Assembly: GCA_041650255.1 (NCBI GenBank)
Contig: JBAZLL010000003.1
Span: 64,801-128,800 of the forward strand
Length of the DNA: 64,000 nt
DNA from: Candidatus Micrarchaeia archaeon
Lineage (GTDB): Archaea; Micrarchaeota; Micrarchaeia; Anstonellales; Anstonellaceae
Reading direction: 5' to 3'
A program made the position numbers and the translations under genes. Under the pieces are notes generated by a model that did no database searches, was not told the DNA's origin, and saw nothing but the letters and a program-made list of their open reading frames with translations. Each line of letters begins with the position of its first letter. Position 1 is the first letter of the stretch. Shown here in pieces: positions 8,912-64,000 of the stretch.

Positions 8912-8994
8912 TCTTTTCTCTTTCCTTTACTTACTTTTTTAAACTGTTTTCGCCTAATGTGCTACGGGTAAAAAGAAGGTTGGCGGTAGATAAA

Positions 8995-17162: not shown

Positions 17163-17783
17163 ATGTTAACCCTCTTTAGCCTAAACAATCGCTCTTTAAA
17201 AAAAGCAGTAAAGTGCGAAAAAAATCCGTTTACGCTCTCAAGGATTCTCAACGAAAATAATATCGCAAGAATCGGCGTACATCCTTTCTTCTATTCGGAT
17301 CTGGGCGAGCGGGGGCTTTTTAGCCTAACCAAATCCATTACATATGAAAAATATCTTGACTTCATAATACCTCTTTTCTCACACCGTTTTGATTTTGAAA
17401 AATCGCTCTTTATTTTTGAGAATACTGTTTATTCATGCAAAACTGCACAAATGATTTTTGATTCACATTCGGCGAATTTTTCGCAAACCCTCCCAAACTA
17501 TTTTTCCATAAATGGAAAAATATTCGCTTACGGTCCTAATGTTTCAATCATTTCATCCTGCGCAGAAGAGCGTGCATGCATTCAAAAAAACCGCGCAAGC
17601 AAATCGTTTGATTCACTAGTCAGCCTGCTTGAAAAAAGCTCGGGAGTATTTGTATTTGGGATGTTTGCAGAGGACTGCGTTGCAAAAGCAATAATAGATA
17701 TTCGCAAAATACTTGCAAAAATAGGAAAGCATACGTGTGTTTTGCACAATCATGCAACAACAAAATACATGCACGAATTCTAA
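17163..17783 (+). CDS. Hypothetical protein of 206 aa.
   Basis: The call rests on the ORF only. It has no recognised motif and no Walker A, so it is not Rad50. Confidence 0.4.
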   Translation: MLTLFSLNNRSLKKAVKCEKNPFTLSRILNENNIARIGVHPFFYSDLGERGLFSLTKSITYEKYLDFIIPLFSHRFDFEKSLFIFENTVYSCKTAQMIFDSHSANFSQTLPNYFSINGKIFAYGPNVSIISSCAEERACIQKNRASKSFDSLVSLLEKSSGVFVFGMFAEDCVAKAIIDIRKILAKIGKHTCVLHNHATTKYMHEF

Positions 17784-17823
17784 ATAAAATTAAAAAAAAA
17801 GAAAAAGTAAACACCAAGAAAGC

Positions 17824-19164: not shown

Positions 19165-19168
19165 AAAA

Positions 19169-20269: not shown

Positions 20270-20670
20270 ACCTTACTCTTGTGAATGCAAAATTTAAAAT
20301 GCGGCGCATAAGAAAAACCGCCAAAATCTAGGCACTTTTAAATATCAATTCATTCTTGCATTTTTTCTTTGCGCAAATTCCAAAACTCATTTGGTGTTTT
20401 GAACCTTTCGTGGTTAATTCGCGTTTGTTGCAAACACACAAACACACAAAGCTTTCCAATATTCAATCTGTTTTTAAATTTCAACTCAGCAGTTAGTCTG
20501 CACGGGGAAACGGGACAGATACAAGCTCATAAAAAAGCGTTTTGGCGTGGGAGCCGAACTGTTTTTGGCGCTTGTGTTTCTTGCGCGCGCCGATAATATA
20601 GTTTTGCAAAAAATGCACAAGCACCCCTTTGGGGTTGATGCTTGCCCGCATTTTATGGGGTGGGGTATTC

Positions 20671-23600
20671 ATGGCAAACGAAGCGCAAAAACAAGATACA
20701 AATTCAAGCAACGAACATACACAATCCGCCGGTCTCAAAATAGAGCGCCGCTTAACTTTGGAAGGAACAGACGTCTTCTCGCAATTTGAATACGAATACC
20801 GCTCTTCAACAATCAGAAACCCCGACGGCTCGGTAGTATTTGAACTTACAAATATAGAAGTGCCAAAAGGCTGGTCCCAAGTCGCAACAGATATTCTTGC
20901 TCAAAAATATTTTAGAAAAGCCGGCGTGCCCCAACGCGGCTCCGATGGAAAAATAATTTTAGACCCCGCAACAAACGAACCGATTCTTGGAAGCGAAACT
21001 TCAATAAAGCAAATAGTAAAACGCCTTTCATCCTCTTGGCGCCATTGGGGAGAGCGCTATAATTATTTTGCATCACAGCACGACGCCGAAATATTTGAAG
21101 AAGAGCTGACTTACATGCTTCTCTCGCAAATGGCGGCTCCGAATTCCCCCCAATGGTTTAACAACGGACTCGCGCTCTCTTACGGAATAAACGGTAAAAG
21201 CCAGGGGCATTTTTTTGTTGATGCAAAAAGCGGCGAGCTCAAAACCTGCGAAGACGCATACACCCATCCGCAATTGCACGCCTGTTTCATACAAAGTGTT
21301 ACGGACGATTTGGTAAACGAGGGCGGAATTTTTGACCTTCTCACACGCGAAGCCCGTCTCTTCAAATACGGCTCGGGTACAGGCACAAACTTTTCATCCC
21401 TTCGCTCCAGTGGCGAATCACTTTCAGGAGGCGGAAGGTCTTCAGGCTTAATGTCTTTTCTAAAAATTTACGACCGTGCGGCGGGCGCAATAAAATCCGG
21501 TGGCACAACTCGCCGGGCGGCAAAAATGGTAATCGTAAATGTGGACCATCCGGACATAGAAGAATTTGTAAATTGGAAAGTGAACGAGGAGAAAAAAGTC
21601 GCCGCACTCGTATCCGGTTCGCGCTCAATAAGAAAATCCTTAAACAAAATAATGCAGGTCGCAATTGAGGAGCACTCAACAGACTTTAGCGGAAACAAAC
21701 GACTACGTCAAGTTGTAGCGGGGGCACTGGCAAGAAACGTCCCACTAAATTATGTTTTGCGCGCACTTTCCCTTTCACAGCAAGGTCTTAGCAAATTTGA
21801 TTTTCCCCTCTTTGATACTCATTATGAAGGCGAAGCATACATCACAGTTTCCGGGCAAAATTCAAACAACACCGTGCGAATTACAAATCGCTTCATGGAA
21901 GCGGTGGATACGGACGACAATTGGCGCCTTGTGCGCAGAACGGACGGCAAAATCGCCCGCGAGCTAAAAGCGCGCGAGCTTTGGAACCAAATATCTTCCG
22001 CCGCATGGGCATGCGCCGATCCGGGTCTGCAATTTGACGACACAATAAATGAATGGCACACCTGCCCAATCGACGGGCGCATAAACGCCTCAAACCCGTG
22101 TTCGGAATACATGTTCCTTGACAACACTGCATGCAACCTTGCCTCTCTAAATCTGTCCAAATTTTTGGACGAAGAGCAAGGCACTCTTAGAATAGATGAT
22201 TATTTGCACGCAATTCGTCTTTGGACAATCGTGCTTGAAATTTCCGTTCTAATGGCAGGTTATCCATCTTCCGACGTTGCACAGCGCTCATACACTTACC
22301 GCACGCTCGGGCTTGGCTATGCAAATTTGGGCACCGTGCTCATGGTATTGGGTATTCCTTACGACAGCCCGCAGGCATTGGCAATCTCGGGTGCACTTTC
22401 TGCAATTCTTACCGGGCAATCCTATGCAACAAGCGCGGAGATGGCAAAAATTATCGGACCATTTGAAGCATACGAGCGCAACAAAAGTTCAATGCTCAAG
22501 GTTATGCGAAACCATCGCCGTGCCGCTTACAATGTAAAGCATTCCGAATACGAAGGTCTTAGCATAAAACCGATCGGAATAGACGAGATAAACGCCCCCA
22601 ACTATTTGGTAAAAGCGGCCCGCGACAGCTGGGATCACGCACTCGAATTGGGTGAAAAATACGGATACCGCAACGCGCAAACAACCGTAATAGCACCGAC
22701 TGGTACAATCGGACTTCTCATGGATTGCGACACCACCGGAGTTGAGCCCGACTTTGCAATTGTCAAATTCAAAAAGCTTGCAGGCGGCGGCTATTTCAAA
22801 ATAGTAAATCATTCCGTGAAAAAAGCCCTCAAGCGGCTGAATTATTCAAAGGCACAAATAGAAGCGATAGAACAATACTGCAAAGGGCACGGCACGCTTG
22901 TCGGTTGCCCGAAAATAAACCGCGAATCATTAAAGGAAAAAGGCTTTTCCGATGAAAAAGTGGATTTGGTGGAGCGCCAGATGCCCTCCGTATTTGACAT
23001 AAAATTCGCATTCAATCAATACGTGCTCGGATCCGAGTTTCTCAAAATGCTCGGTGCAACCGATGCGGATCTTTCCAATCCGAAATTCAACATTCTCAAA
23101 TTCCTCGGATTTGAAAAAGAGGATATCTCGCGCGCAAACGATTATGTTTGCGGCACAATGACAATTGAGGGTGCGCCCCATCTAAAACCCGAACACTATG
23201 CAATATTTGATTGTGCATCAAAATGCGGCAAAAAAGGCACGCGCGCAATTGCTTATCAGGCGCACATACGCATGATGGCGGCAGTTCAGCCTTTCATCTC
23301 CGGCTCAATTTCAAAAACAATCAACATGCCAAAGGACGCAACAATTGATGATGTGAAAGAAGCATATCTTCTCTCTTACAAAAAAATGTTAAAGTGCAAT
23401 GCGCTTTATCGCGACGGCTCAAAACTTTCACAGCCACTCAACGCCACAAGCGAATCGGAAGAGGAGGAGCTTGAGGCATTGACTGCACTTTCGGCAGAAG
23501 CTGAAAAAGCAATGGATCAGGAAGCGATTCAGCCAGTTGTTCTCTCCACTTTGCAGAGAAGAAAACTTCCTTCAAGAAGGCACGGCTTTGTGCAAGAGGC

Positions 23601-24204
23601 GCGGGTCGGCGGGCACAAGGTTTATCTCAAAACGGGCGAATATCCAGATGGAAAACTCGGAGAAATATTTATCGACATGTACAAAGAAGGTGCCTCGTAT
23701 AAGTCATTGCTCAACTGCTTTGCGGTTGCAGTCTCAAAAGGCTTGCAATACGGGGTTCCGCTTGAGGAATTTGTGGACACATTCACCTTCACCCGCTTTG
23801 AGCCTTCCGGTCCTGTGAGTGGGCACGAAGCGGTGAAAAATTCCACCTCAATTGTGGATTACATCTTCCGCGTGCTCGGGTACGAATATTTGCACCGCAC
23901 CGATTTTGTGCATGTAAAACCGGTTTCAATATCCGTCTCCTCCGAGCAGGCAACCCTCTCTCCGCCAACAAAGCAGATAGAGCAATCTTCGGATGGGCTT
24001 GAAAAGGGCGAGGACGAAATGCTTTCGGCGGGTCAGAAGCAGGCACAAACCCCTCCTTCTGCGTCCCCTCATGAAAAAATAAAAGAGGCAAAGGCTCTCG
24101 GATACACCGGCGACCCTTGCGGCGGATGCGGCTCAATGAAAGTAAAGAGAAACGGAAGCTGTACGGTTTGCCTTGATTGCGGAGAAACAAGCGGGTGTTC
24201 GTAA
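20671..24204 (+). CDS. nrdJ: Adenosylcobalamin-dependent (class II) ribonucleotide reductase, long form.
   Basis: Matching blocks: [79 protein letters not shown], and the C-terminal Cys cluster [32 protein letters not shown] prefer the ATG at 20671. Confidence 0.9.
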
Positions 24205-25843: not shown

Positions 25844-26275
25844 TTATCCGACTAACGCTCTTCTTGTTGCTTCTTCTTTTGAGAAAAGACTTTTTTTTAT
25901 CATTTCATCCATTACGCTCTGCAAAACCATTTCTCTTCTCTGAAAAGTAGGCTCTTCAACTCCATCCTCATAAATCAGGCGCACTTTGTATTTTTTTATA
26001 ATAGTCTTTCTATCCGCTTCAAGCACATTTAATCTTTCATCATAACCGGAACCGTGCTCACCAAAAGAAAAACTGTTTCTTATTCCAATTTCCTTGCGCT
26101 CTTTTTTTATAATCCTGATTTTCTTGTCAATTTCAGAAACTTTTATCGCGTCCCCCTCACTCAAAATCAGCATATTGTATACAAATCCCTTAGCCCCAAC
26201 CACCTCTCCTCCCTCATTTTTCATGCCCGATGGTTCCGCGCTAAGAATATAATAAAAATTTCCTTCGTCCGCCAT
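25844..26275 (-). CDS. Hypothetical protein of 143 aa.
   Basis: The call rests on the ORF only. It is divergent from the thyX-like gene. Confidence 0.45.
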   Translation of the reverse strand: MADEGNFYYILSAEPSGMKNEGGEVVGAKGFVYNMLILSEGDAIKVSEIDKKIRIIKKERKEIGIRNSFSFGEHGSGYDERLNVLEADRKTIIKKYKVRLIYEDGVEEPTFQRREMVLQSVMDEMIKKSLFSKEEATRRALVG

Positions 26276-26338
26276 ATTTTCTTAACTAACGCGAGCATCT
26301 TTATAATTGTTCAATTGCTTGTATTTGCGGGAGGTTTT

Positions 26339-27979
26339 ATGGACGAATTTAGCCAAGCTGAAGCAGAATTGCTCAAGCCCTATGTCACAAACACAAACAA
26401 AAATGTCTTTGGCTTAATCAACCTGCCCCAAGTTGTCTGCGGCGCTCTTTTCTCAAGATATTCCCGCTCTTCAAAAAGCGCAAGGCGCGTTCTTTTGGAA
26501 GAATTTATGCAGGACCCGCAAATGCATTTTGCGGAAATAGTCGGCAGTGCAAAAAATTCTCCAACCCAGCTCATTGCAACGAAAAAAGCGGAAGAATTTT
26601 ACGACCGCGTTCTCGTCGGCTTCGGAGACGATTCCGTCGCCGAATTGGGCGGGGCTCACATCGCCTGCGAGCAAATATCCAATCTTGCCACAAAATTCAC
26701 CCAAGATTCAAGAATAGGCATCTCCCCTCTTGAAAAAAGCACCCGCTATGTTTATTTTGACAAAAAACAGGATGGAAAATATCTTTACTATTGTGGAAAA
26801 GAAATCACCGAGAGCGAAGTTGGAAAAATATACGAGAAAACCTGCGATTTGCTCTTTGACACTTATGTTTCTCTCATGCAAAAAGTTTCTGAAAAACTTA
26901 TGCAAAAATATCCAAGGGAAAAAGATGCATCCGAGCGTGCATATTCATCCGCAATTCGCGCCAAAACCTGCGACATTTTGCGCGGGCTTCTTCCGGCGGG
27001 AACGCTTACAAACTCCGGCTTTTACGGAAACGGGCGCTCGTTCGAATATCTCCTGACAAAAATGTATTCCTCCGATTTGCCCGAAGTGAAAAATCTTGCA
27101 ACACAAATGCAGGAAGAGCTTTCTTTCTCAATTCCCTCTTTCGTAAAACGCGCGAATAACAAATACGGAATCGCGACACAGCAATACTGGATTGACACTC
27201 GCACGCAAACAAAAAAATTAGTTGAAGATAAATTCTTGACTGCAAATTTGCCAAAAGAAAAAAACAGCACAGAAGAATCTACTCCCGAAGTACAACTAAT
27301 TTATTTTGATGAGAATGCGCATGAAAAACTGTCTGCCGCAATTCTTTTTGAATTTGGAATGGATTATGCGTCTGCAAAAAAGAAAGCATCCTCCCTTTCC
27401 AAAGGGCAACAACTTGAGCTTATCTCATCATACGTTGGAAAAAGAGGCAACCGCCGCCAAAAGCCCGGGCGTGCATTCGAGCATGTTTTCTATACATTTG
27501 CAATTTGCGCAAATTTTGGTCAGTTCAGGGATTTGCACAGGCATCGAATTCTCACTCAAATGCGTCAGCCTCTTTCATGCGAAAACGGATACGATATGCC
27601 GCCAGAGCTTGTGCAAATGGGTCTTGATTTTGAATTTTCATCCGCAATGCAGGAAGCGAAAGCCTCTTACGAGCAAATAAATTCTGTCCTTGGGCCCGCG
27701 CTTGCCCAATATGTTGTGCCTATGGCTTACCGAATGAAATGGTATATGCACTTAAACCTGCGCGAGACATTCCATCTGATAGAGCTTCGTTCTGCGCCGC
27801 AGGGCCACACCGACTATCGCCGCGTGGTGATAAAAATGCTTGATGAAATGAAAGCGGTACAGCCAGAGCTTGCCAATTTCATAATATTTGCAAACCGCGA
27901 GGATATTGCCCTTGAGCGCCTTGATGCGGAAAAAAGAATAGATGAGCGTCTAAAAAAAATTGATGAAAAAAAATATTAG
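26339..27979 (+). CDS. thyX: ThyX-family protein (flavin-dependent thymidylate synthase-like), unusually long at about 546 aa.
   Basis: ThyX-like blocks: CGALFSRYSRSS, AELGGAHI, GQFRDLHRHRILTQ, ETFHLIELRSAPQGH. I prefer the ATG at 26339, with the TATA sequence CTTTATAATT about 30 nt upstream. Confidence 0.6.
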   Translation: MDEFSQAEAELLKPYVTNTNKNVFGLINLPQVVCGALFSRYSRSSKSARRVLLEEFMQDPQMHFAEIVGSAKNSPTQLIATKKAEEFYDRVLVGFGDDSVAELGGAHIACEQISNLATKFTQDSRIGISPLEKSTRYVYFDKKQDGKYLYYCGKEITESEVGKIYEKTCDLLFDTYVSLMQKVSEKLMQKYPREKDASERAYSSAIRAKTCDILRGLLPAGTLTNSGFYGNGRSFEYLLTKMYSSDLPEVKNLATQMQEELSFSIPSFVKRANNKYGIATQQYWIDTRTQTKKLVEDKFLTANLPKEKNSTEESTPEVQLIYFDENAHEKLSAAILFEFGMDYASAKKKASSLSKGQQLELISSYVGKRGNRRQKPGRAFEHVFYTFAICANFGQFRDLHRHRILTQMRQPLSCENGYDMPPELVQMGLDFEFSSAMQEAKASYEQINSVLGPALAQYVVPMAYRMKWYMHLNLRETFHLIELRSAPQGHTDYRRVVIKMLDEMKAVQPELANFIIFANREDIALERLDAEKRIDERLKKIDEKKY

Positions 27980-46167: not shown

Positions 46168-47523
46168 TTAAGCTGAGCTATAATACAGCTTGACCTTTTC
46201 AATAAGCCCTTCATTTCCAACATAGAGCGAAGTTACCTGGTCCATATTGGCTATGGGCGTATCCAGAAGCGAGCCGAGTTTGCCGTCATAAGATTTTCCG
46301 CCTGCCTGTTCAACCAAAAACGAAAGCGGTATGCCCTCGTACAGCAATCTCAGCTTCGGAGCAGGATAGAAGAAAATTCCGCCTTCACGCAAAAGACTTG
46401 CAATCTCCATGACTGCGGCTCCGGAACATCTTATTTTATAATTTGGTAAAAATTCCTTTACGACAAATTCGCTAAACTCCGGGCTCCAGGAGGTATTTCC
46501 ACCCGGAATAACCAAGCTCGGTTTTTGAGGTATTTTTATATTCTGCCCGTCGGCCATCTGTTCAAACTGTGAAAAGCCTCTGTTACCATAATTCTTCACA
46601 AGCTCGTGTACTCCGTCCCCCGTGCTATAAATAAACGAGAAAACCGGACCATACAAAATAATTGCCGCCGCCTTTAGCTCTCTGCCGCTTTTTGGCTCAT
46701 TATCTTCATAAACTCCTAAAATGGAGCCAAAAATATTTCTGGTTTTTATATTTCCCGAGCCATCCAGCGGGTCTAATGTAATAATGTATCTTCCACTCTT
46801 GTACCTATACCTGAATTTACTATCTTTCGGGTCAATCGGGTGGTCAAGCTCTTCGGAATAAATTCTTTTTATTTCCCCTGTACGAAGCATTGTTTTGCAC
46901 AAGACATTATTCGCCCAATCATCAAGCTCTTTTTTAATCTCTTTATATTTGTTCATCAATTTCTCGTCCGCCATCTCGGTATTCCCAATCTCCTTCTTGT
47001 TTTCTGCAAGCCTTCTTTCCAAATGAGAAGTAAATCTTAGTTGCATATCCACCGAGCCGTAAGCAAATGTCAGCATTATTTTTGCAAGTCCTCGGTCAAG
47101 TTTCTCAAACGGATTGCCTTTTTCAATTTCCGCAAGTTTCATTGCAAGCGGTGTTGACCTTATCGGAGATAAAATCTGCGTGCGCTTGTACAATTCATAG
47201 AGCCACCAGTGGGCGCTGTCAATTTTATTCGTATCAATCATTTTATCTATTTTTTTCATGAAGACTTTTTCGCACAATTCAAGGTCGCTATAAATATCCA
47301 CGTCCTTATTGTCCTCTTTCATAAATGCATAATCTACAAATGCCTTTGTGAATGGGGTGATTTCGGTTCTCCAATATACTTTTCTTGGAATATCTACAAA
47401 CGGATTCAGGCCAATTAACTTTTTTGAATTAAGAAAAAGTTTCTGCTCTGTGTAACGTTGTTTATTCGGACTCGGAAGAGGTTTTGGTTCGGTGTAATAT
47501 CGCCTATCGTTATGTCCTGCCAT
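46168..47523 (-). CDS. fbp: Class 1 fructose-1,6-bisphosphatase-like protein with a long divergent N-terminal region.
   Basis: Matching blocks: LDPLDGSGNI, YGPVFSFIYSTGDGVHEL, GGIFFYPAPKLRLLYEGIPLSFLVEQAGGKSYDG. The metal-binding DPLDGS motif sits at about residue 250, far later than in the roughly 330-aa enzymes. Confidence 0.75.
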   Translation of the reverse strand: MAGHNDRRYYTEPKPLPSPNKQRYTEQKLFLNSKKLIGLNPFVDIPRKVYWRTEITPFTKAFVDYAFMKEDNKDVDIYSDLELCEKVFMKKIDKMIDTNKIDSAHWWLYELYKRTQILSPIRSTPLAMKLAEIEKGNPFEKLDRGLAKIMLTFAYGSVDMQLRFTSHLERRLAENKKEIGNTEMADEKLMNKYKEIKKELDDWANNVLCKTMLRTGEIKRIYSEELDHPIDPKDSKFRYRYKSGRYIITLDPLDGSGNIKTRNIFGSILGVYEDNEPKSGRELKAAAIILYGPVFSFIYSTGDGVHELVKNYGNRGFSQFEQMADGQNIKIPQKPSLVIPGGNTSWSPEFSEFVVKEFLPNYKIRCSGAAVMEIASLLREGGIFFYPAPKLRLLYEGIPLSFLVEQAGGKSYDGKLGSLLDTPIANMDQVTSLYVGNEGLIEKVKLYYSSA

Positions 47524-47555
47524 TTTTACATCTCCCTTTTGTTTTGTAGCTCTTC

Positions 47556-48083
47556 TTATCTTTCCTCCTTGCACGGGATTACCGCCAATATATTAGACAG
47601 CCCGACCGCCCTAATATCTTCTGTCTTTATTTCAATAACATTCAAATCCTCTTTTAATTGAAAAATAAGCTCACTCACAAACGCATTCCCCTTTTGTTTG
47701 TAATTGTACCATCCCTTGTATATTCCAAGCTGGGGAATAAACTCTTTAACATCTTCAGCTGTAAATGAAAATTCGTTAAGCAATTTCTTTGCAATACGTA
47801 TGTCATCATAAGTAATATTGTCGCACACAAGCAGAGTCACAAATGCTTCATGAAGTTTAATCATTACACTTTTTTGTTTGCCAAATACATTTCCAGAGCT
47901 TGCACTTTTGCTGTTAGAGTCAACCTCACCCAGATGTCCCTTAAAGTTAGTAAAAAGCTTTTCAAAATTAGAAGTTTGTATTTTTTCAGTCAGAGTTTGC
48001 AATTTCTTAATACTTTCAGTTCCATTCCCATTGCTCTGTTCCACATTTTTCAAAACCTTTGACGCCATCAGCACCACCGACAT
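47556..48083 (-). CDS. Hypothetical protein of 175 aa.
   Basis: The call rests on the ORF only. It has no recognised motif. Confidence 0.4.
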   Translation of the reverse strand: MSVVLMASKVLKNVEQSNGNGTESIKKLQTLTEKIQTSNFEKLFTNFKGHLGEVDSNSKSASSGNVFGKQKSVMIKLHEAFVTLLVCDNITYDDIRIAKKLLNEFSFTAEDVKEFIPQLGIYKGWYNYKQKGNAFVSELIFQLKEDLNVIEIKTEDIRAVGLSNILAVIPCKEER

Positions 48084-49837: not shown

Positions 49838-51919
49838 ATGAGCGAGCCATACCTGATAGAAATCTCATCAGAAGCCGGAAGAAAGGTCGGCGGAATCTAC
49901 ACTGTAATAACAAGCAAATCCCGTTATGCTCTAAAACATTTTGAAAAAAGATATCTATACATCGGCTTTTACGATGAGAAATGTGCGCAGGACGTAAAGT
50001 TTTCCCAGCCGGAAGGCGAGTTAAAGGAAATTTTTGACGAGCTTGCATTGCAGGGAATATTCTGCCATTATGGAGAATGGCTCTATGCCCAAAACACTCC
50101 GATAATATTGGTGGATGCAAAAAGCTTCGGGCAAAAAAACGTTCAATATGACGATGCCGGGCAATCTCATTACGATATAGAATCAAATCACATAAAATTT
50201 CTTTTATGGAAGCATTTTGGCATAGACTCGTTAATGGAAAAATCATGGGATTACGATGAGAATGTTGTGTGGGGCTGGGCAGTCGGGATGCTCATTGAAA
50301 AGCTTGCAAAAATATCGCCCTACAAAGAGCACAAATTAATCGGGCAATTCCACGAATGGATAACCGGCTCCGCGCTCTTGTACACAAGAATGCGCGGCTT
50401 GCCGATAGCAACCGTTTTCACGACACACGCAACCGTTCTTGGGCGCTCTCTTGCCGCTTCCGGCGCGGATGTGATGGCGCTTTCCCAATCATCTCATTCT
50501 CAAATAGATGTCTCAAAAGCATACCAACTAAAAGTGGAAGGAAAGCACCAGCTTGAAATGGCGGCGGCAAAAAAGTGTCACGTGTTTGGCACTGTGTCCG
50601 AAACAGTTGCACAAGAAGTCAGATACATTTTGGGAAGATATCCCGACGTTGTAATGCTTAATGGAATGGACTTTGAGCATAGCATGGCGGAAGCGCAGGT
50701 GCGCGACATCTCCGAGTACGTGCGACACGAGATTTTACAGCTCAGCGAAGCAATTCTCACTCCCTATCAAAGTGCCCGATATGACAATGCAATGATTCTT
50801 TTCATTTCCGGCAGATACGAATTCACCAACAAAGGATTTGACATTTTCATAGATGCAATGGGCAAGCTCAACAAAAGAATAAAGCAAAAAGGGGCAAAAA
50901 AACAAAAGCAGGTAATCGCCTTTATTTTCGCCCCCTCCGCGGTCCGGGGTCCGAAAGTGTCGATAATTCGCAACTATCTTCTTCTTGACAAGATGAATGA
51001 AGTGCTGGACGCATCGCCCGGCGCGAACATAAAAAAACACTATCCAAATGTCATGTCAAGAATCAACGAGGTAAAAACCTCCCTTAAGCGCGACCTTCTC
51101 ACAATGAATTCAAGTTTTATCAAGGAAAACAACGAGCCTCCCGTCTGCCTGTTTGATCTGAACTACGCAAACGACCAAATAATCTCCGCATGCGAAAAGG
51201 CCGGTCTTAGAAACGGCGAGCATGATATGGTAAAAGCATTCTTTTATCCAACCTATCTAAAGCCAAACGACGGTCTGCTCAACATGAGCTATGATGATAT
51301 AATTTCCGGCATGGATGTGGGAATATTCCCCTCAAGGTACGAGCCTTTCGGATACACTCCTCTTGAAGCGGGATTGAAATTTAGTATCGCAGTCTCAACC
51401 GATTCAGCAGGTTTTGGAAGGTTCCTTCTATCAAAAGAAAACCTCGAAAACAGAGGCGTAAAAATACTAAAAATGGCGGGCGGAGCGGATTCTGCATCCA
51501 CCCAATTGGCAGACTATCTTCAGTCAATTTACTATTCCGAGCCGGAGCAAATACTGGAGAAAAAAGAGGATTCGTACAATCTCATGCACCTCTTTGATTG
51601 GAAAATGCTTATTTCAAATTACATAAACGCTTACGATTTGGCGCTTGAGCGCGCGGGCAAGGAAGATGCGCAAAAGCCTGTGCAAGTGCATTCTCAGCGC
51701 TCCATTATATCTGCCTCAAAAAAATTATCCAACGCAGTGCTTGAATCAAGCCTGCCTCTGATGTCAAATGCAAATAAAAAAGCCGGTTCAAATGCAAAAG
51801 GCGCTGTGCACAATGCAAAGGAAAAAAGCATTTCACACAATGCGGCCGCGCGCATATCTTCACGCGCGCAGAAAAAATCCGGCAAACATTTAGGGGCAAA
51901 AACCAAAAAAAGAAAGTAA
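49838..51919 (+). CDS. GT3-type (eukaryote-like) glycogen synthase with a basic C-terminal tail.
   Basis: The N-terminus EISSEAGRKVGGIYTVITSK matches the GT3 EVAxEVxNKVGGIYTV block. Other blocks are FHEWITG, TTHATVLGR and FPSRYEPFGYTPLEA. The last approximately 70 aa are K/A/S-rich. Confidence 0.75.
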   Translation: MSEPYLIEISSEAGRKVGGIYTVITSKSRYALKHFEKRYLYIGFYDEKCAQDVKFSQPEGELKEIFDELALQGIFCHYGEWLYAQNTPIILVDAKSFGQKNVQYDDAGQSHYDIESNHIKFLLWKHFGIDSLMEKSWDYDENVVWGWAVGMLIEKLAKISPYKEHKLIGQFHEWITGSALLYTRMRGLPIATVFTTHATVLGRSLAASGADVMALSQSSHSQIDVSKAYQLKVEGKHQLEMAAAKKCHVFGTVSETVAQEVRYILGRYPDVVMLNGMDFEHSMAEAQVRDISEYVRHEILQLSEAILTPYQSARYDNAMILFISGRYEFTNKGFDIFIDAMGKLNKRIKQKGAKKQKQVIAFIFAPSAVRGPKVSIIRNYLLLDKMNEVLDASPGANIKKHYPNVMSRINEVKTSLKRDLLTMNSSFIKENNEPPVCLFDLNYANDQIISACEKAGLRNGEHDMVKAFFYPTYLKPNDGLLNMSYDDIISGMDVGIFPSRYEPFGYTPLEAGLKFSIAVSTDSAGFGRFLLSKENLENRGVKILKMAGGADSASTQLADYLQSIYYSEPEQILEKKEDSYNLMHLFDWKMLISNYINAYDLALERAGKEDAQKPVQVHSQRSIISASKKLSNAVLESSLPLMSNANKKAGSNAKGAVHNAKEKSISHNAAARISSRAQKKSGKHLGAKTKKRK

Positions 51920-51952: not shown

Positions 51953-52495
51953 TTATTCATTTTCCTCTTGCGCCTCAATCCAGTCCGTCTCAAACACGTC
52001 TATATAATCCTTCACAATCTCCCCTTCAAAAACAGCCGCCGCCTCCCTATTTTCATTCATTGCCGCTTTTGAAAAATTAATTGAGCCAACAAGCACTCTT
52101 TTCCCGTCAATAATCATCATCTTTGAATGCGTGAGCTTGTAAGAAAGCGAAGCCCATTTGAGTTCAACCCCTCCCTTTTGCAATGCAGATGAAATTTTGT
52201 CAATATTGTATGAATTTGTTCGCGATTCCAAAATAACTCGCACCCTAACCCCTCTTTGCGCCGCCAGCGCCAGCTCATCCGCAACTTTTTCATTTGTAAA
52301 AACGTACATCTCAAGTGAAATGCTATTATTCGCAGACCTAATCAGCGATAATATTTCCTCCTGCGAGCCGGGCGAGAAAATCGGATATGCCAAATCGGCG
52401 CATTGCGTCTTTTGAGTGGACATCCAAATTCCGCAAATAAGCAAAATTGCAAATACTCCAATCAGCGCCCCTGCAAAAAAGCTTTTCGTATCCAA
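51953..52495 (-). CDS. Membrane-anchored single-HKD phospholipase D-family protein (Nuc-like nuclease architecture).
   Basis: An N-terminal TM (FFAGALIGVFAILLICGIWM) is followed by one HKD motif, THSKMMIIDGKRVLVGSINFS. The total length is about 180 aa. Confidence 0.75.
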   Translation of the reverse strand: MDTKSFFAGALIGVFAILLICGIWMSTQKTQCADLAYPIFSPGSQEEILSLIRSANNSISLEMYVFTNEKVADELALAAQRGVRVRVILESRTNSYNIDKISSALQKGGVELKWASLSYKLTHSKMMIIDGKRVLVGSINFSKAAMNENREAAAVFEGEIVKDYIDVFETDWIEAQEENE

Positions 52496-56564: not shown

Positions 56565-58277
56565 CTATATCAGCCTGCTCAAGCCCGCAATTTCAATGTC
56601 TCCGCCAAGTGAGGGGGATAATACCTTTATTGATGCCAACGCAACCATTAGTGAAATAAATGGCGCAATAAGGCTAAATATCAGCAGTTTTGCCATGTTA
56701 TCAATCGTTCCGTTTTCGCCAAAAAGTGAATAGCCCCCTCCTGCAACCGCTCCGACTCCAACAAGCGGGCCGACCGCATCGGCAAATCCCTGCGAATATC
56801 CCTGCCAAAGCCTCTTTTCCCAGCTTTCCCTTTTAATCTCAAGAAAAGAGTTCACTTCATCTTCCCCGGTATCTTTCGTATAACATATATCCACAATCAT
56901 TTTTGTCTGCTCATCAAGCAATCCGTCTTCATTAACAAATTCTTGCCTGAAATTTGAATAAGTGTTCATATCAGAAGTGCATCTGCACGAATTCTCATTG
57001 CAATAATAATCCGTTTCCCTGCCGGAAATAGTATTTCCATATTCATCTCTTGGCGGACAGGAAAGCCCATACTCGCCGCATTCCTCTCCTTCATCAATTT
57101 CTCCGTTCTTGCAAAGCGGGCTATAATCCGGCGCACCCTTAACCGCCTGCACTTGGTCTCTTTCCACTCCTTCAAAATTTATGTCTGTGCGATAAATGTT
57201 ATATCCTATCTGCTCAATCTGCGCAGGTGTGCTGTTCCACGGACCGGTAAACGAATAGAGCACCGAGCTCCAAAACACATACATCATCGGAAACACAATG
57301 TAAAATCCTATCGCCAATGCAATAAGAAGCCCGCCCAGCCTTCGCGTGAAATACATTGAGCGGAAAAATATCCCTGCCGCCAAAAAGAACGGGAAAAATG
57401 CCAAATGCATAAAATCAATGATAAACTGCTGTGCCCGCGTAATCATCAAATTTTTCATCAGCACATCAAACACAAAGCTCAACGTTTCCACAACGGGCGT
57501 AAGCCCGGCAAGCGGCGAAACCGAGAGCGCGCCTCCCGGTGCGGGTATTCCCTTAAAGCCAAATCCTGCCGTTGAAAGCGGATATAAAATCGCATTGATT
57601 CTTACAATTGAGAGTGCCTGCCCTTCGGTTGATTTTGCCAGTATATTCAAATAATCCTCGGCGATGATAATATGACACGGTCTTTCTTTCCCCTGTGTCA
57701 GCGGCGAGCCGGAATCTGACGGATAGCATCTTGCATTCACATACGCGCTCCATTTCAGCCCGATATTTTCAACGCCGTTAATTGTCGGTGAATCTCCGAG
57801 CGTATTATATGTCGGCAGGCTCGCGCAAATTATCCCAAGCGAATTTACAATCATCAATATGCCCATCAAAATCAATGCCGTATATCCAAGCTGAATAATT
57901 TCTGATTTTACCCACGCTTTGAGCTTGTCATCCTGCATAAAGCTTGCATAAAACCACGAGAGCGTGCAAATCGCAATTCCTATTCCTAATGCTGCGGCAA
58001 TCGGGGCGCTCCAAATCCCCCACCAAAGCCCGAACTTTTCGCTTATTCCCCCGTCCTGTCCGCTTGATTGATCAACGCAACCGGACATGAAAAATAAAAT
58101 CGCAAACATTGCCGCAAACAAAATCGGCTTCAACCGCGCATTTCTCAATGCTTCAAACGCATTCAAATTCGGCGCATTCAAAATTTTATTTGCATTTTTT
58201 TGCAAAGCATCCACTGGCGCATCTTTGTGCAAAAACGATTTTTCATTTTCATCTGATTTTGCTTTTTTCATTTTCAT
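56565..58277 (-). CDS. Paralog family member C (570 aa). It has a lipobox-like N-terminus and a Cys-rich insert.
   Basis: Family motifs: KLKAWVKSEIIQL, VSPLAGLTPV, and the core QQFIIDF...LAAGIFFRSMYFTRRLGGLLIALAIGFYIVFP. The insert is CKNGEIDEGEECGEYGLSCPP...YYCNENSCRC. The C-terminal tail is GGDIEIAGLSRLI. Confidence 0.7.
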   Translation of the reverse strand: MKMKKAKSDENEKSFLHKDAPVDALQKNANKILNAPNLNAFEALRNARLKPILFAAMFAILFFMSGCVDQSSGQDGGISEKFGLWWGIWSAPIAAALGIGIAICTLSWFYASFMQDDKLKAWVKSEIIQLGYTALILMGILMIVNSLGIICASLPTYNTLGDSPTINGVENIGLKWSAYVNARCYPSDSGSPLTQGKERPCHIIIAEDYLNILAKSTEGQALSIVRINAILYPLSTAGFGFKGIPAPGGALSVSPLAGLTPVVETLSFVFDVLMKNLMITRAQQFIIDFMHLAFFPFFLAAGIFFRSMYFTRRLGGLLIALAIGFYIVFPMMYVFWSSVLYSFTGPWNSTPAQIEQIGYNIYRTDINFEGVERDQVQAVKGAPDYSPLCKNGEIDEGEECGEYGLSCPPRDEYGNTISGRETDYYCNENSCRCTSDMNTYSNFRQEFVNEDGLLDEQTKMIVDICYTKDTGEDEVNSFLEIKRESWEKRLWQGYSQGFADAVGPLVGVGAVAGGGYSLFGENGTIDNMAKLLIFSLIAPFISLMVALASIKVLSPSLGGDIEIAGLSRLI

Positions 58278-59351: not shown

Positions 59352-60863
59352 CTACACCAATTTGCTCATTCCAAATATTCTCGGCTCTCCGCCGATTGCA
59401 ATGCTGATGTCTTTGAAAAGCGTGACGCAAATAATAATCGTGTTTGCCAAAAAGAGCAGGTTCAATGCAAACCACTGCATGCTCGTCGTGAATTGGTCAA
59501 TGATTGCGGAAAAGAAATATTCAACAGGCAATATCGGACCAAATATGGCTCCGAAATTTGCCATATAATTCATCACTATTCCAGAATTTTTCACAAACGC
59601 CTCGCTCACCGCCTTTTGCTGGCTTGCAGGAACTCTCGGATCCGAGTTTTTGCCATCGCTCCAAATCGTTTCCACTATCTTATCCGAAACGTCCTGTCCC
59701 TGCTCTTCAAATCCGCCCGGTCCCGCAATATTTTTTTGCACCCGCGCGGCAAACTCTGCCTGTGTCTCGCCCGGATTGGGCGTGCAAATCTCAAGCATGG
59801 ACTGATAATTTGTCCAGTCAATCATCGCCGGCTTTGCATCTTTTTCCCATAATGCGTTGAAATAAATCTGCTCGTTAATCCAAAGCGTGATTGGAAATAT
59901 GAAATAAAACACAAGCGCCAACGCGATAAGCGTCGCGCCTGTCTTTCTTGTAAACGGAATCGCCTTAAACGCAATCCCAAGAGGCAAAAAAACTGTAAGC
60001 GCATTTTGGTGCACGAATTGCAAAACTGTTTTTTGCACTACAACTGCCACCAGCCCGACACCTATCATGTCTGTGAGCATAACCATCGCATCCGATACCG
60101 GCGTAAGTCCGGCATTTGGTGCCAAATCAAGTGAAATACTGCTGACAAGCGGCTCTGGCAAATAAGCGCTCACTCCGAAAGTTGAAACCGGTCCAAGCAA
60201 AAATTCAAGCGTGAAAAGGCTCATGTAAATATTCATCATGTGCCCGAACATTATTCCCTTGCTCATTTCCGGCTGACCAAGTACTGTTCTTTGCGCCTCC
60301 CACATATTATCGTAAGCGCTGATGTAATCCAAATCAAATCCCTGTCCCGCAACCTCTTCCGAAATCAAAACGGCATCTTCTGTAAATGGCATGCATCCCA
60401 AAAACCAGTCAGTTTGCGCGAACAAATGATTTTCAGGCTGTGTCGAATCGGCAATATTGTATATATGCTGGTTTTCCATGCAAATTCCGGTAATTGAGCT
60501 GTCAATCGCTCCCTCACGCGGTGCCGAGAGCATTGTGCTTGATGCAACATTTTTGGCAAATATCCCGTACGCAACAAGGCTTCCCATGACAATTGCAATC
60601 ACAATAACCGTGGACACGAGCTCGTACACTTCCTGTTTTGCAAATGCTTTCACATTCGGCAGGTTGAATGCCTCGCCCACCATATAAGAGAGAGAAATAA
60701 TCAGAATCGCAAGTGCAAGCCCGACAACTACAAGGCCCCACCAATCCGGGAAAGCAATCTTTGGTGCTTCAAATCCGGTTACGGTTTGTGCATAAGTGCT
60801 TGAGCTAAGCATTACCATAGCAAGAAAAGCAAGTGCAAAAGCCTGCCTGATACCCACATTCAT
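59352..60863 (-). CDS. Paralog family member A (503 aa), the first gene of the operon. Signal-peptide-like N-terminus.
   Basis: The N-terminus is MNVGIRQAFALAFLAMVMLSSSTYAQ. Family motifs: VKAFAKQEVYEL, LAPNAGLTPV, and the core VQKTVLQFV...LPLGIAFKAIPFTRKTGATLIALALVFYFIFP. The C-terminal tail is GGEPRIFGMSKLV. Confidence 0.7.
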   Translation of the reverse strand: MNVGIRQAFALAFLAMVMLSSSTYAQTVTGFEAPKIAFPDWWGLVVVGLALAILIISLSYMVGEAFNLPNVKAFAKQEVYELVSTVIVIAIVMGSLVAYGIFAKNVASSTMLSAPREGAIDSSITGICMENQHIYNIADSTQPENHLFAQTDWFLGCMPFTEDAVLISEEVAGQGFDLDYISAYDNMWEAQRTVLGQPEMSKGIMFGHMMNIYMSLFTLEFLLGPVSTFGVSAYLPEPLVSSISLDLAPNAGLTPVSDAMVMLTDMIGVGLVAVVVQKTVLQFVHQNALTVFLPLGIAFKAIPFTRKTGATLIALALVFYFIFPITLWINEQIYFNALWEKDAKPAMIDWTNYQSMLEICTPNPGETQAEFAARVQKNIAGPGGFEEQGQDVSDKIVETIWSDGKNSDPRVPASQQKAVSEAFVKNSGIVMNYMANFGAIFGPILPVEYFFSAIIDQFTTSMQWFALNLLFLANTIIICVTLFKDISIAIGGEPRIFGMSKLV

Positions 60864-60886
60864 TGTCCAGAATTAGGTTTGTTTGC

Positions 60887-60894
60887 TTTTAAAA
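60887..60894 (-). promoter_or_regulatory. TATA-like box for the six-paralog operon.
   Basis: TTTTAAAA lies 24-31 nt upstream of the ATG at comp. 60863. This spacing recurs at other genes in the window. Confidence 0.4.
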
Positions 60895-60942
60895 CCAAAC
60901 CTCACCTGTGTCTATCACTGCATTTTTTATCTGCATCAAGGA

Positions 60943-60964
60943 TTCGGGCGCTAACCCGCCCGAA
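60943..60964. promoter_or_regulatory. GC-rich inverted repeat (8-bp arms, 6-nt spacer) in the divergent control region. Candidate operator.
   Basis: The sequence is TTCGGGCG-CTAACC-CGCCCGAA. It ends 5 nt upstream of the plus-strand TATA box, which is the BRE-proximal position. Confidence 0.4.
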
Positions 60965-60969
60965 AACCA

Positions 60970-60979
60970 TTTATAAAAA
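60970..60979 (+). promoter_or_regulatory. TATA box for the giant plus-strand gene.
   Basis: TTTATAAAAA starts 29 nt upstream of the GTG at 60999. This geometry is compatible with a leaderless transcript. Confidence 0.45.
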
Positions 60980-60998
60980 CCGCCTGCTTATTTATTGC

Positions 60999-63900
60999 GT
61001 GAAAAACAAGTCTTTGCTGCTGTTTTGGCTATTACTATTGCTATCTGCCAGTTTTTCCCAGCAAATTTGTCCCCAATGTTTCGAGAGCAGCATAAGGCTA
61101 AACCTTTCCGAATTTTCTCAAACCCGAATTGTGTACGCACAGGCAACTTATCTCAACGTGACTTTTTACACCCCAGAAGCCGACGATTCAGACTCGGCTT
61201 CGCAAATAGTCAATTCGCAAATGCAAATAGAAGTGCTCAACGCATCCGGCGCGTCCATAAGTTTTTTTGTGGACAATCAGCCGGTCAGCGATGAAAATGG
61301 CGAGCCATCCTGCCAAAACCTGATAACTGATTATGCTGGCATTGTCGAATGCAAAATAATATATGTAAAAAATCCATACACCTCCGACCCTCCGGCAATA
61401 AAATTAGATGACTGGCCCCAGGACGCGCTTCTCACCGCCCGATTGCAATATTCAAACGAAAATCCGCAGATAAAGCCATCAATCTCAAGTCCGGTGCTCA
61501 TCTCAACAAACAACAATCCCTCGCAACAATTGTACACCACATTTTTAATGGCGGCAAGTACCCCGAAAAATATGCTCATCTGTCTGCCCCTGATAATAAT
61601 ATTCGGGCTTCTCATCGCCTCATTACAATACGCCGGAAAAAATCCGCTTTCACTCTTTGACATCACCGTTCCCCGCCTGCCGAATTTGAAAAAAGTGAGA
61701 ATGAAATCTCCGACAATTCCATTGCAACTTAACATGATGGGGAGAATGTCTGCTCGCGTTATCGCAAGAAATGAGCGCGCAATCGAATCCTCATTGCTTG
61801 CGCTTTATCTTCGTTCCGGCAAAAGCAGCGGTTCACTAAAGCAGGTAATCCGCGATATGTTTCCCAGGCGTCCAATTTTAGGTTCCGCAAAAGCGTATAG
61901 CGACGCAGGCTACGATGCCTCGCTTGCAAAACTTCGTTCCCTGATAGACAGTTCCGGCGCAGACAAAAAATACCGCGACATTGCGTGGGCGGCAATAATG
62001 CGCAACATGGAAATTCGTCAGACTCTCATAATCGGACTGAAAACGACCAGCGCGGCAAGGGCAGGTCAATTCTCAAACCGGGCAAGCACAATAAGCGGGA
62101 CTCTTGACCTCATAGGCACCCGCCTTGCAAAACCATGGAAATTAATTCCCTCTCTTGCGAAAAACGAACGGCTGGACGCGCTTCCGGGGCTTCCCTATGT
62201 AGAGCGCACATTTCTCGTAGCGCAAAATTGGATTGGAAGCAAATACTCGAATCTGTCGCTTCGCCGCGCGCTGGTGAAAACACTTGTCGCCGAAACGGCT
62301 CGCTCGCTCGGTGCAAATCCGCAGGCAAAATTCATTCGCGACAATATATTCGACCACAAAAAAATCGGAGACATCCCTCACATAATAGAGCGCCTGCGCC
62401 AGGAAAGCTACATTCTTGGCAGGGCAATAGTTGACGAATACGCCCGCGCGCTCATGATGCCAATCGTGCTCAAAAAAGGCAAGGGCGAAAACGAATATTC
62501 ACTGGATACAAACGCCCTGAAAAACGTCCTTGCAATGATTAAATCTGCGCAGGAAAAAATAGATTCGGATGTGCGCTCGGGCAGAATAGATTCAACATTT
62601 CGCGAATATTATCTAAAAGAGGAAATGATGCGCAGGCTTGCCGACTACATACAAAAAAACAAAGTCGCGTTCTATGATGCGACAGGCTCCCAACTCTCGC
62701 AAAAAGAAGTCGGCGAATTTGTAAAAAATTATGCGCTTGCTTACGCGCAAAAAGCGCGTGAAATAATAATGGCGGACGGCGTTAGCACCGCAGATGGTCG
62801 CTATCCCTCCCTTACCGATTCGCGCGCAAACAAGTTAAATCCCGAAGATGTATATTCCCGTTACAACCAGCTTGTGGCAATGCTTGGTGCCTCCTCAAAA
62901 CAACTGGCGCAGGGAAAAATCCCTCTTGTAATGCTCGGGCACGACATGACAGACCTGTTTGGAAAAGCTGTCAACATCAAGGTAGCCCGCCAGCAGTTGC
63001 AAGCCCAATCCGAAGTTGAAAAATTACAGCAAATCCGCTACATGATGGAAGCCGAGCTGATGAAAAAACAGCTCTTTGATTATATAACTGGTTCGCGCGC
63101 ATTACTGGATAATTACAATAAAAAAATAGAGCCGCTTCTTGGGCAGGGCATTCTCAACAACAACTGGCTCGCGCAACTTGACCATGCAATTTCCCTAAAA
63201 AGTATCCGAGACTTGGCGGATTATTCCCGACGCGGAGAATGGGCGGCCCGCAACTATCTCACGGCCCACTATTCTTACAACACCGACTTTTTGGCGGAGA
63301 CTGAAAAAAACAATCTCAGCGTTCTTCGCCAGCTTTTTTCCAGCCAATTTGACCGGGGCTATGAAGACCTTTTCAGAAACTATGATGTCATGATACGCCG
63401 CAACCAAATGACATATCAAAGCATGAAATCCGTTTTTGAAACCTATATGCCCGGTCAAAAATGGGATGCCGCCGGCTATCAGGCATGGAAGGAAAAAGGT
63501 GTCACATATGCCGACATCAAAAAAGGAGTGTGGATAATAGATGCCCGCCAAACCATTATACCTCTTGCCTCCGGATTTGATTTTGACAAAGACGGCGCAG
63601 TCCGCTCCGCAAGATGCAATGTTGTAAACGGTCGGCTCACTTACGACCATACGGTGATTGACTTTTTGGGCTCCGATTACGCCGAACGCCCGGTGAATGC
63701 CTCTTACATGATAAAAACCGCCGACGGTCGCTGGAGACCCGGTACTCCGACAGACCCGGAAACCGCTACAATTGTACGTCAGCTCAAAAGCTATTACGCA
63801 CAGCTTTCATCTCTCAAATTCGGAGAAGGCAGGTTTGCGGATTACACTGCCGATGGCAAAGTTTCTGATGCCGCCGCAAATATGGATGCATCAGTACGTG

Positions 63901-64000
63901 GTCTTTCCAGAAAACAAATTCTTGAAAACATCGAGCTACTGCAAAATCAGCTCAAAGACCGCATGCGCCTTGTGCCCCGTTCCGCAATTGCGGATGATAT
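60999..64000 (+). CDS. Giant protein of unknown function, at least 1000 aa. It runs off the window edge and is absent from the ORF track. It has a signal peptide, a roughly 165-aa N-terminal domain, one TM helix and a large C-terminal region.
   Basis: I checked the reading frame by hand and found it open from 60999 to 64000 (codon positions divisible by 3). The N-terminus is V/MKNKSLLLFWLLLLLSASFSQQICPQC. The TM helix is MLICLPLIIIFGLLIASL. Beyond it lie at least 800 aa, apparently helix-rich, with no Walker A or other motif that I recognise. Confidence 0.7.
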   Translation, partial: MKNKSLLLFWLLLLLSASFSQQICPQCFESSIRLNLSEFSQTRIVYAQATYLNVTFYTPEADDSDSASQIVNSQMQIEVLNASGASISFFVDNQPVSDENGEPSCQNLITDYAGIVECKIIYVKNPYTSDPPAIKLDDWPQDALLTARLQYSNENPQIKPSISSPVLISTNNNPSQQLYTTFLMAASTPKNMLICLPLIIIFGLLIASLQYAGKNPLSLFDITVPRLPNLKKVRMKSPTIPLQLNMMGRMSARVIARNERAIESSLLALYLRSGKSSGSLKQVIRDMFPRRPILGSAKAYSDAGYDASLAKLRSLIDSSGADKKYRDIAWAAIMRNMEIRQTLIIGLKTTSAARAGQFSNRASTISGTLDLIGTRLAKPWKLIPSLAKNERLDALPGLPYVERTFLVAQNWIGSKYSNLSLRRALVKTLVAETARSLGANPQAKFIRDNIFDHKKIGDIPHIIERLRQESYILGRAIVDEYARALMMPIVLKKGKGENEYSLDTNALKNVLAMIKSAQEKIDSDVRSGRIDSTFREYYLKEEMMRRLADYIQKNKVAFYDATGSQLSQKEVGEFVKNYALAYAQKAREIIMADGVSTADGRYPSLTDSRANKLNPEDVYSRYNQLVAMLGASSKQLAQGKIPLVMLGHDMTDLFGKAVNIKVARQQLQAQSEVEKLQQIRYMMEAELMKKQLFDYITGSRALLDNYNKKIEPLLGQGILNNNWLAQLDHAISLKSIRDLADYSRRGEWAARNYLTAHYSYNTDFLAETEKNNLSVLRQLFSSQFDRGYEDLFRNYDVMIRRNQMTYQSMKSVFETYMPGQKWDAAGYQAWKEKGVTYADIKKGVWIIDARQTIIPLASGFDFDKDGAVRSARCNVVNGRLTYDHTVIDFLGSDYAERPVNASYMIKTADGRWRPGTPTDPETATIVRQLKSYYAQLSSLKFGEGRFADYTADGKVSDAAANMDASVRGLSRKQILENIELLQNQLKDRMRLVPRSAIADD

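Follow-up and report, generated by a model that had tools for sequence, protein, structure and literature searches.

The locus analysed here lies in a stretch of 64,000 nucleotides from a Candidatus Micrarchaeia archaeon (contig JBAZLL010000003.1, positions 64,801 to 128,800; hereafter the window) and comprises a giant gene, named G, the divergently transcribed genes p1 to p6 for six paralogous membrane proteins, and the gene of a lipoprotein, H, directly after G. The closest described systems are type IV secretion systems (T4SS) and the DNA import systems of Crenarchaeota. The rvh T4SS of Rickettsiales carries four to five tandem, enlarged VirB6 paralogs and retains VirB4, VirB8-11 and VirD4; to our knowledge, it has no G-like protein. 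The crenarchaeal Ced and Ted systems comprise a VirB6-like pore (CedA, CedE, TedA), a VirB4-like ATPase (CedB, CedD) and a pilin (CedA1, TedC) (PMC9905601, PMC11868833), and a hetero-oligomer of CedA and its paralog CedE has been proposed (PMC11868833). Monoderm T4SS are defined by VirB4, TrsD, VirB3 and VirB2 arrays, and their VirB1 combines an SLT domain with a peptidase domain, to which the homologs from Patescibacteria often add M23 (PMC12102498).

The locus speaks to the question of how DPANN archaea make contact with other cells and trade material with them. Large surface proteins have been described from DPANN (PMC8204110, PMC5498576), and cryo-electron tomography of the Micrarchaeon ARM-1 revealed in the envelope a 21-nm barrel-shaped complex for the docking of host nanotubes (PMC11329633). 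The module formed by G, H and p1-p6, all of whose genes are annotated as 'hypothetical' at present, is a concrete, phylum-wide eight-gene candidate that makes the composition of the symbiont-side apparatus testable. It also bears on whether archaeal episymbionts rely on a T4SS-derived machine, as bacteria of the Candidate Phyla Radiation (CPR) do, and on whether partners with peptidoglycan are a target of some Micrarchaeota. We found the module described nowhere in the literature searched on DPANN and Micrarchaeota gene clusters, VirB6, CedA or peptidoglycan hydrolases.

Our analysis showed that G is linked to p1-p6 and H in all of the loci examined and that it belongs to a protein family which, judging from the searches, is confined to Micrarchaeota. 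As for its function, we tentatively propose, at slightly less than an even chance, a trans-envelope apparatus that is T4SS/Ced-like and specific to Micrarchaeota, in which G serves in the cytoplasm as the scaffold or adaptor subunit.

Like Ced and Ted, the module is chromosomal and archaeal and has polytopic proteins with five to six transmembrane (TM) helices. Unlike them, it has six fixed paralogs instead of one or two, it shows no VirB4-like ATPase and no clear pilin in the cluster, and it adds a bitopic protein of 1,500-2,650 amino acids (aa) and a putatively muralytic lipoprotein, both absent from Ced/Ted. With the monoderm T4SS of Patescibacteria/CPR and with Gram-positive conjugation it would share a VirB6-like membrane component and a large VirB1-like SLT/peptidase hydrolase (M23 occurs in CPR and in the H protein of the most distant locus, L007), and with the former also the setting in ultrasmall epibionts with reduced genomes and the conserved chromosomal location. 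None of the components that define monoderm T4SS was found at the module, however, G is without a counterpart there, and the organism carrying the module is an archaeon. The tandem proliferation of genes for possibly VirB6-like proteins in an organism that depends on a host and has a reduced genome would also recall rvh, if p1-p6 are indeed homologs of VirB6.

Gene G and its family

The frame of G is open from the GTG at 60999 to the end of the window, with 1000 sense codons and zero stops in the translation of 60999-64000 on the forward strand. The expectation for such a run by chance is approximately 1e-23 (our estimate, with ~5% stop codons at the local composition). This agrees with the preliminary description, made from the sequence of the window, which had reported 1000 open codons and had explained the absence of G from the list of open reading frames (ORFs) by the lack of a stop within the window. 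The extension of the contig, which the same description had suggested, could be carried out on public data: 12,870 nt of the window are 100% identical to the ENA contig ERZ27247363 k141_2121193 (337 kb), on which the frame closes after 1,809 codons, ~2.4 kb past the window end (L003 9869-15298), and a Logan contig is likewise identical to the window. Homologs of 28-49% identity can be aligned along the full length of G, which indicates purifying selection, and G is a real gene of this size. That the long frame is an artefact, i.e., non-coding sequence, a fused gene call or a misassembly, might be suspected from one homologous contig (L001) that ends within G and from the differing starts of G in public gene calls. 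Nevertheless, the identical sequence in two independent assemblies and the full-length homologs in many genomes, with motifs conserved along the whole length, effectively refute this explanation, whose probability we regard as negligible.

The in-frame stop nearest upstream of GTG 60999 is at 60801-60803, and the start candidates in this frame are TTG 60879, GTG 60999, which is the second after the stop, and later codons. GTG 60999 is favoured because the homologs P0003 and P0004, which have similar signal peptides, align from profile positions 1 and 5, because residues 23-27 form the conserved motif ICPQC, and because the element GAAAACCATTTATAAAAACC, resembling a B recognition element (BRE) and TATA box, is located 19-28 nt upstream. 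The element is conserved in the homologous locus L006, and its placement fits a leaderless archaeal transcript of G. In the public gene call P0002 (1,765 aa) the start is set 44 codons too late, at an internal GTG (61131), which strips the public gene model of both the signal peptide and ICPQC; the start at GTG 60999 corrects this model and restores the signal peptide.

A word-indexed protein search, including 13- and 30-member profiles, returned only 9 close relatives of G, and it was the exhaustive HMMER search that revealed the family: 109 representative clusters have E<1e-3, and for 66 of them E<1e-10. The full-length members have 1,500-2,650 aa, and all named relatives are 'hypothetical protein' entries of Ca. 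Micrarchaeota, Micrarchaeia or Anstonellaceae, together with one labelled Parvarchaeota. The comparison of G and four other full-length members with Pfam, NCBIfam and PHROGs returned no family (only noise in NCBIfam), and the search of PDB with G, by sequence and by profile, gave no match (best E=0.11).

Predicted topology and anatomy of G

Based on the sequence features, G is predicted to be a type-I membrane protein with a cleavable signal peptide, an ectodomain of ~165 aa, one TM helix and ~1,595 aa inside the cell. The signal-like hydrophobic segment covers residues 5-24 in the hydropathy analysis. Residues 23-190 contain 4 Cys and 3 sequons; Cys105, Gly114 and Cys118 are invariant among 30 divergent relatives, Cys24 and Cys27 are also situated in the ectodomain, and the ectodomain as a whole is predicted to be disulfide-bearing, with an invariant Cys pair. 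The 30 residues following the TM helix include 6 K/R versus 1 D/E, and the positive-inside rule, together with two zinc-ribbon-like motifs in the C-terminal part, assigns ~1,595 of the 1,809 residues to the cytoplasm. The signal peptide, the N-terminal domain of about 165 aa with a few Cys and sequons, the single TM helix and the long remainder without an NTPase motif had all been recognised in the preliminary description. Of the giant surface or membrane proteins that it had noted as recurrent in episymbiotic archaea, a surface protein does not fit the topology, as no more than ~165 aa are predicted to be exposed.

The alternative in which G is a giant protein of the surface or adhesin type and itself attaches to the host, the paralogs being accessory or regulated genes, would account for the signal peptide and for the Cys-containing N-terminal domain with its sequons, and it would have precedents in the large surface proteins of DPANN cited above. 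We consider it very unlikely: just ~165 of the 1,809 residues precede the lone TM helix (164 aa between signal peptide and TM), the remainder is cytoplasmic according to the positive-inside rule and the zinc-ribbon motifs, and Pfam showed no domain of an adhesion type in any of five members of the family. In giant DPANN surface proteins of the adhesin or S-layer type the bulk is outside and adhesion or repeat domains (PKD, laminin-G, Ig-like) are present, and G lacks both features.

The strongest family signature is the juxtamembrane segment, the profile of which matches 122 of the 127 fetched proteins and in which G213, P216, D221, T223, P225 and P228 are invariant among the 30 divergent members. 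The C-terminal core at approximately 1130-1270 (EQTVMRDPR...GYQTGQ...TRTFFTKMTGY) is shared by 62 proteins, the most distant ones among them. At residues ~300-1000 conservation is limited to close relatives, with segment profiles matching only 29-39 proteins, and residues 215-1000 are, by their composition, rich in helix-forming residues. The zinc-ribbon-like motifs, both of the form CPxH-x9-CPxC, are located at residues 1621-1637 and 1691-1707, and their C1621/H1624/C1634/C1637 and C1691/H1694/C1704/C1707 are invariant across the 13 sequences of the close set.

The AlphaFold2 (AF2) model of residues 1001-1809, built from a 22-row alignment, is mostly helical (mean pLDDT 68.9, pTM 0.52) and contains a very confident long helical hairpin as well as beta-hairpins that coincide with both Cys motifs. 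The Foldseek comparison of this model gave no significant match in PDB (best E=0.61, TM-score <0.1) or in BFVD (best E=8.7e-3 with a TM-score of 0.07; all TM-scores <0.12), and the tape-measure proteins and designed helical bundles that came up in the Foldseek searches with this model and that of p6 were rejected as generic long helices. Likewise, a long coiled-coil ATPase of the SMC/Rad50 type, with Walker A/B heads on either side of the coiled coil, was rejected, since neither G nor its close homologs have a Walker A motif and Pfam gave no SMC-type match; nor is a Walker A motif recurrent in the giant family. The best-conserved C-terminal motif, MRDPR...GYQTGQ (residues 1152-1177; L003 ~13322-13399), lies where the model has low pLDDT and no structure, which suggests an interaction loop and not a folded catalytic core.

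Conserved linkage of G, p1-p6 and H

Six loci were examined, namely the source contig, L001, L005/L006, the P0114 contig, L008 and L007, and DNA was available for all of them except the P0114 contig. In 6/6 loci six genes for membrane proteins are linked to G, a gene encoding 750-975 aa lies 3' of G, and the linkage holds down to giant homologs of about 20% identity. The co-occurrence with the six-paralog block in related genomes, proposed earlier as a check, is therefore observed, and of the two roles suggested for G, partner or regulator of the operon, that of a partner is supported by the linkage, while no DNA-binding family that would speak for a regulator was found.

The six genes, described at first as paralogs, are true paralogs. 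The flanking genes in the five loci with DNA all match the paralog profile with E values of 1e-30 to 1e-82, and each paralog of the window has one clear ortholog per locus, with 108-543 bits compared to at most 69 bits for the next-best match. The strict 1:1 orthology and the order p1 to p6 are kept in these five loci, even in L007, the most distant one, where the operon has moved downstream (17448-24202) and is convergent with the H gene. Six ancient, non-redundant and order-conserved paralogs lead us to expect a hetero-oligomer of fixed stoichiometry. The control region that G was said to share with the operon is indeed exactly 135 bp long in the window, but this arrangement is not universal, given the downstream, convergent operon of L007.

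The wider neighbourhood is of the housekeeping type (AdoMet decarboxylase, RNase P Rpp14, L15e, glycogen synthase, SecDF). This conserved context and the absence of PHROG matches indicate that the module has been passed on vertically, as opposed to being a mobile element. A module derived from a virus or from a mobile element, domesticated or integrated, would make G a tape-measure-like or internal-virion-type protein, H an endolysin-like one and the paralogs element-encoded membrane proteins. Such an origin is suggested by the tape-measure or minor tail proteins among the top BFVD matches of the C-terminal model of G, by the M23 and SLT domains that tape-measure proteins and endolysins can carry, and by a Nuc-like neighbour that resembles pKM101 Nuc. 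The BFVD matches are insignificant, though, neither G, H nor p1-p6 has a PHROG match, no integrase, capsid, terminase or other viral genes are present, and distant lineages share the same chromosomal neighbourhood and a strictly vertical orthology of the paralogs, all of which makes this origin highly improbable.

Family signals of the paralogs

In the NCBIfam scan of 30 paralogs against 18,950 models, CedA was the sole family matched by more than one of them (three members), and its paralog CedE was matched by a fourth. All four matching proteins are p3 orthologs, whose only recurrent family matches these are, and they match with the same conserved core to the same part of the model, although weakly (E 0.0099-0.11), at scores of ~15 bits against family cut-offs of 330-400. 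Single weak matches of individual paralogs were obtained to the T4SS_pilin and Mbov_0395 pilin-like families, and none of the paralogs matched Pfam TrbL/VirB6. The AF2 model of p6, based on an 18-row alignment, consists of six long helices (pLDDT 70.5, pTM 0.63), and its best natural matches in Foldseek were the R388 TrwI/VirB6 chains, below significance (probability 0.5-0.6, TM-score 0.30-0.37, E about 0.5). The agreement of these individually weak signals, to which the VirB1-like combination of SLT and M23 in H can be added, makes a distant relationship of p1-p6 to CedA/VirB6 plausible but unproven.

The p3 protein and its close orthologs have a Cys-rich insert, CKNGEIDEGEECGEYGLSCPP...YYCNENSCRCTS, in the loop preceding the last TM helix. 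Its composition suggests a disulfide-bonded extracellular module specific to p3.

Lipoprotein H

The H gene is a third conserved component of the module, which had escaped the preliminary description. It is orthologous in all loci examined, and its products share a lipobox, 34-36 Cys and a conserved N-terminal domain of ~400 aa. The C-terminal domain contains E-S (catalytic-type), GLMQ and YNPFNP motifs (AIGESG...GLMQC...YNPFNP) and is matched by Pfam SLT with E=0.011 in H of the window genome and E=0.0034 in H of L008, in both cases below the gathering score. In H of L007 the SLT Glu is lost and a genuine Peptidase_M23 domain (E=4.8e-15) with HxxxD and HxH motifs is present instead; in NCBIfam, M23-type matches to MepM and EnvC were obtained. 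These matches point, weakly, to a secreted Cys-rich lipoprotein with a putative SLT-like muramidase domain.

By its domain, H may be likened to the secreted SLT-like proteins of DPANN (fam00969), which have been proposed to act on the wall of the partner cell. It differs from them as a lipoprotein of 750-975 aa that stands within a fixed eight-gene module and belongs to a Micrarchaeota-confined family, and the likeness concerns H and not G. In L005 a protein with a YkuD_2 L,D-transpeptidase domain (18474-19532, forward strand; 1.8e-15) is encoded right after H and is another peptidoglycan-type enzyme in an archaeon.

The proposed apparatus and its alternatives

From the linkage, orthology and domain content, we infer that G, H and p1-p6 would form one trans-envelope apparatus of eight proteins. 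The p1-p6 proteins would build a hetero-oligomeric membrane channel, plausibly a hetero-hexamer and distant kin of CedA/VirB6, and H, acting on the outside like VirB1 of monoderm T4SS, would open the cell-wall polymer of the partner cell. The TM helix and juxtamembrane motif of G would dock onto the p1-p6 channel, and its cytoplasmic arm could serve as a scaffold, a gate or a substrate adaptor that recruits the cargo, with the zinc ribbons hinting at nucleic acid or protein. The apparatus as a whole would mediate contact-dependent exchange between the Micrarchaeon and another cell.

Several results weigh against this proposal. Every CedA/VirB6 signal is sub-significant (E about 0.01 in the NCBIfam scan; E about 0.5 in Foldseek), helical membrane bundles easily give spurious matches, and the profile of the paralog family found no match among PDB sequences. 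G is without detectable similarity to any T4SS component, and the model of its C-terminal part, of moderate quality, matches no known fold. The SLT matches of H remain below the Pfam threshold, and sequence and profile searches with H in PDB revealed no relative; moreover, the hosts of cultured Micrarchaeota lack peptidoglycan, as far as we know. Finally, no VirB4/CedB/HerA ATPase, coupling protein or clear pilin was found in the clusters of the six loci, within the 64 kb of the window or over the next 10 kb downstream. There is no ATPase Pfam match among the eight cluster genes in the six loci, each ORF of more than 500 aa in the window is either assigned another function or without a match, and no small two-helix, pilin-like ORF adjoins the cluster in the window.

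In L008 a Gly-rich two-helix membrane peptide of 56 aa, MWGTIKNVATIAGPAMIAMGGMGG..., is encoded between SecD and p6 (1951-2121, forward strand) and may be a small subunit resembling a pilin or holin. A gene for 56-58 aa occupies the same SecD/p6 position on the P0114 contig, corresponding in size and position only; there is no counterpart in the window.

The same eight genes could instead serve the envelope biogenesis or cell division of the Micrarchaeon itself, with flippase-, insertase- or divisome-like paralogs, an H that remodels the cell's own wall polymer and a G that acts as a cytoskeletal or scaffold tether, without any transfer. The phylum-wide vertical inheritance in a housekeeping context and the cluster without ATPase or pilin are in line with this function. 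So are the SecD/SecF genes adjoining p6 in two loci, the YkuD gene directly after H in L005, the M23 and SLT enzymes, which are classic division and remodelling hydrolases in bacteria (cf. the MepM and EnvC matches), and the two FtsZ genes 6-7 kb upstream of G in L007, arranged in tandem at 2784-5185. On the other hand, the adjacency of FtsZ, SecDF or YkuD is in each case confined to just one or two lineages, peptidoglycan-synthesis genes were not seen in the window, and CedA/CedE is the one family signal that recurs among the paralogs. We rate a biogenesis or division function as unlikely.

The trans-envelope apparatus proposed here could also represent a new class of machine, in which a hetero-hexameric ring of VirB6/CedA-derived subunits works with no dedicated VirB4 ATPase and G is a cytoplasmic plug or ruler that gates or extends the ring. 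It would be the symbiont-side conduit for the uptake of host material, possibly the 21-nm barrel of ARM-1 (PMC11329633). This version is unlikely, and the link between the module and the barrel is speculation.

Feature coordinates and the intergenic region

The features of the locus are listed in Table 1.

Table 1. Features of the G locus. Positions refer to the window, except for H.
Feature	Position	Strand	Basis
G, 5' part (first 1000 codons; 5' 55% of the gene)	60999-64000	+	open frame and homologs
Predicted signal peptide of G, residues 1-22, VKNKSLLLFWLLLLLSASFSQQ	60999-61064	+	hydropathy; homologs begin similarly
Predicted ectodomain of G, residues 23-186, acidic	61065-61556	+	30-sequence alignment, composition
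Predicted single TM helix of G, residues ~187-214, with invariant Cys195	61557-61640	+	hydropathy 2.53; conservation
Juxtamembrane motif of G, M-x-Y-x-GKNPLSLFDITVPRLP, residues 209-228, predicted cytoplasmic face	61623-61682	+	alignment of 30
Predicted cytoplasmic region of G (start), residues 215-1000, basic, rich in helix-forming residues	61641-64000	+	composition, segment profiles
BRE/TATA-like element of G, GAAAACCATTTATAAAAA	60963-60980	.	sequence; kept in L006
Divergent intergenic region between G and p1 (ATG 60863, -), 135 bp	60864-60998	.	sequence
TATA-like element of the paralog operon, TTTTAAAA, inside palindrome 60875-60902	60889-60896	.	sequence; kept in L006
p1, 503 aa, polytopic membrane protein	59352-60863	-	paralog profile, orthology
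p2, 356 aa	58278-59348	-	paralog profile, orthology
p3, 570 aa, Cys-rich loop; core weakly matches CedE/CedA	56565-58277	-	NCBIfam scan
p4, 533 aa	54961-56562	-	paralog profile, orthology
p5, 406 aa	53731-54951	-	paralog profile, orthology
p6, 354 aa	52617-53681	-	orthology, AF2 model
PLD/Nuc-like nuclease, 180 aa, N-terminal TM, adjoins p6	51953-52495	-	Pfam PLDc_2 4e-27
H, 959-aa lipoprotein, 36 Cys, directly after G, beyond the window	L003 15499-18378	+	orthology, motifs

Two palindromes were noticed in the intergenic region. The first, AGGTTTGTTTGCTTTTAAAACCAAACCT, encloses the TATA-like element of the paralog operon, and the second, the GC palindrome TTCGGGCG-N6-CGCCCGAA (60943-60964), stands just 5' of the BRE/TATA-like element of G. 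Both are candidate sites that a regulator may bind.

Neighbouring genes and other observations in the window

The PLD/Nuc-like protein encoded next to p6 has its relatives in PDB among Zucchini/MitoPLD (2.3e-13), pKM101 Nuc (2.9e-13) and H. pylori NucT (2.1e-8). The gene is present in three close loci (window, L001 and L005) and not in L007 or L008, which places it outside the conserved core; its product may be a membrane-anchored nuclease for nucleic-acid uptake.

The gene at 49838-51919 (forward strand) encodes a eukaryote-type (GT3) glycogen synthase of 693 aa (PF05693, E=7.9e-96), which adjoins the module in L005 too. Further from the module, two ORFs are without a Pfam match, one of 354 aa (649-1713, reverse strand) and one of 547 aa (7268-8911, forward strand), which overlaps the start of the annotated SMC gene (8818-12438). 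Three enzymes of the window are unusually built. The FBPase at 46168-47574 (reverse strand) has an N-terminal extension of ~200 aa. In the ThyX protein of 641 aa (26054-27979, forward strand), the Thy1 domain is found at 435-605 only, preceded by an N-terminus of ~430 aa without assignment, and the class II ribonucleotide reductase of 1,191 aa (20629-24204, forward strand) carries a TSCPD domain.

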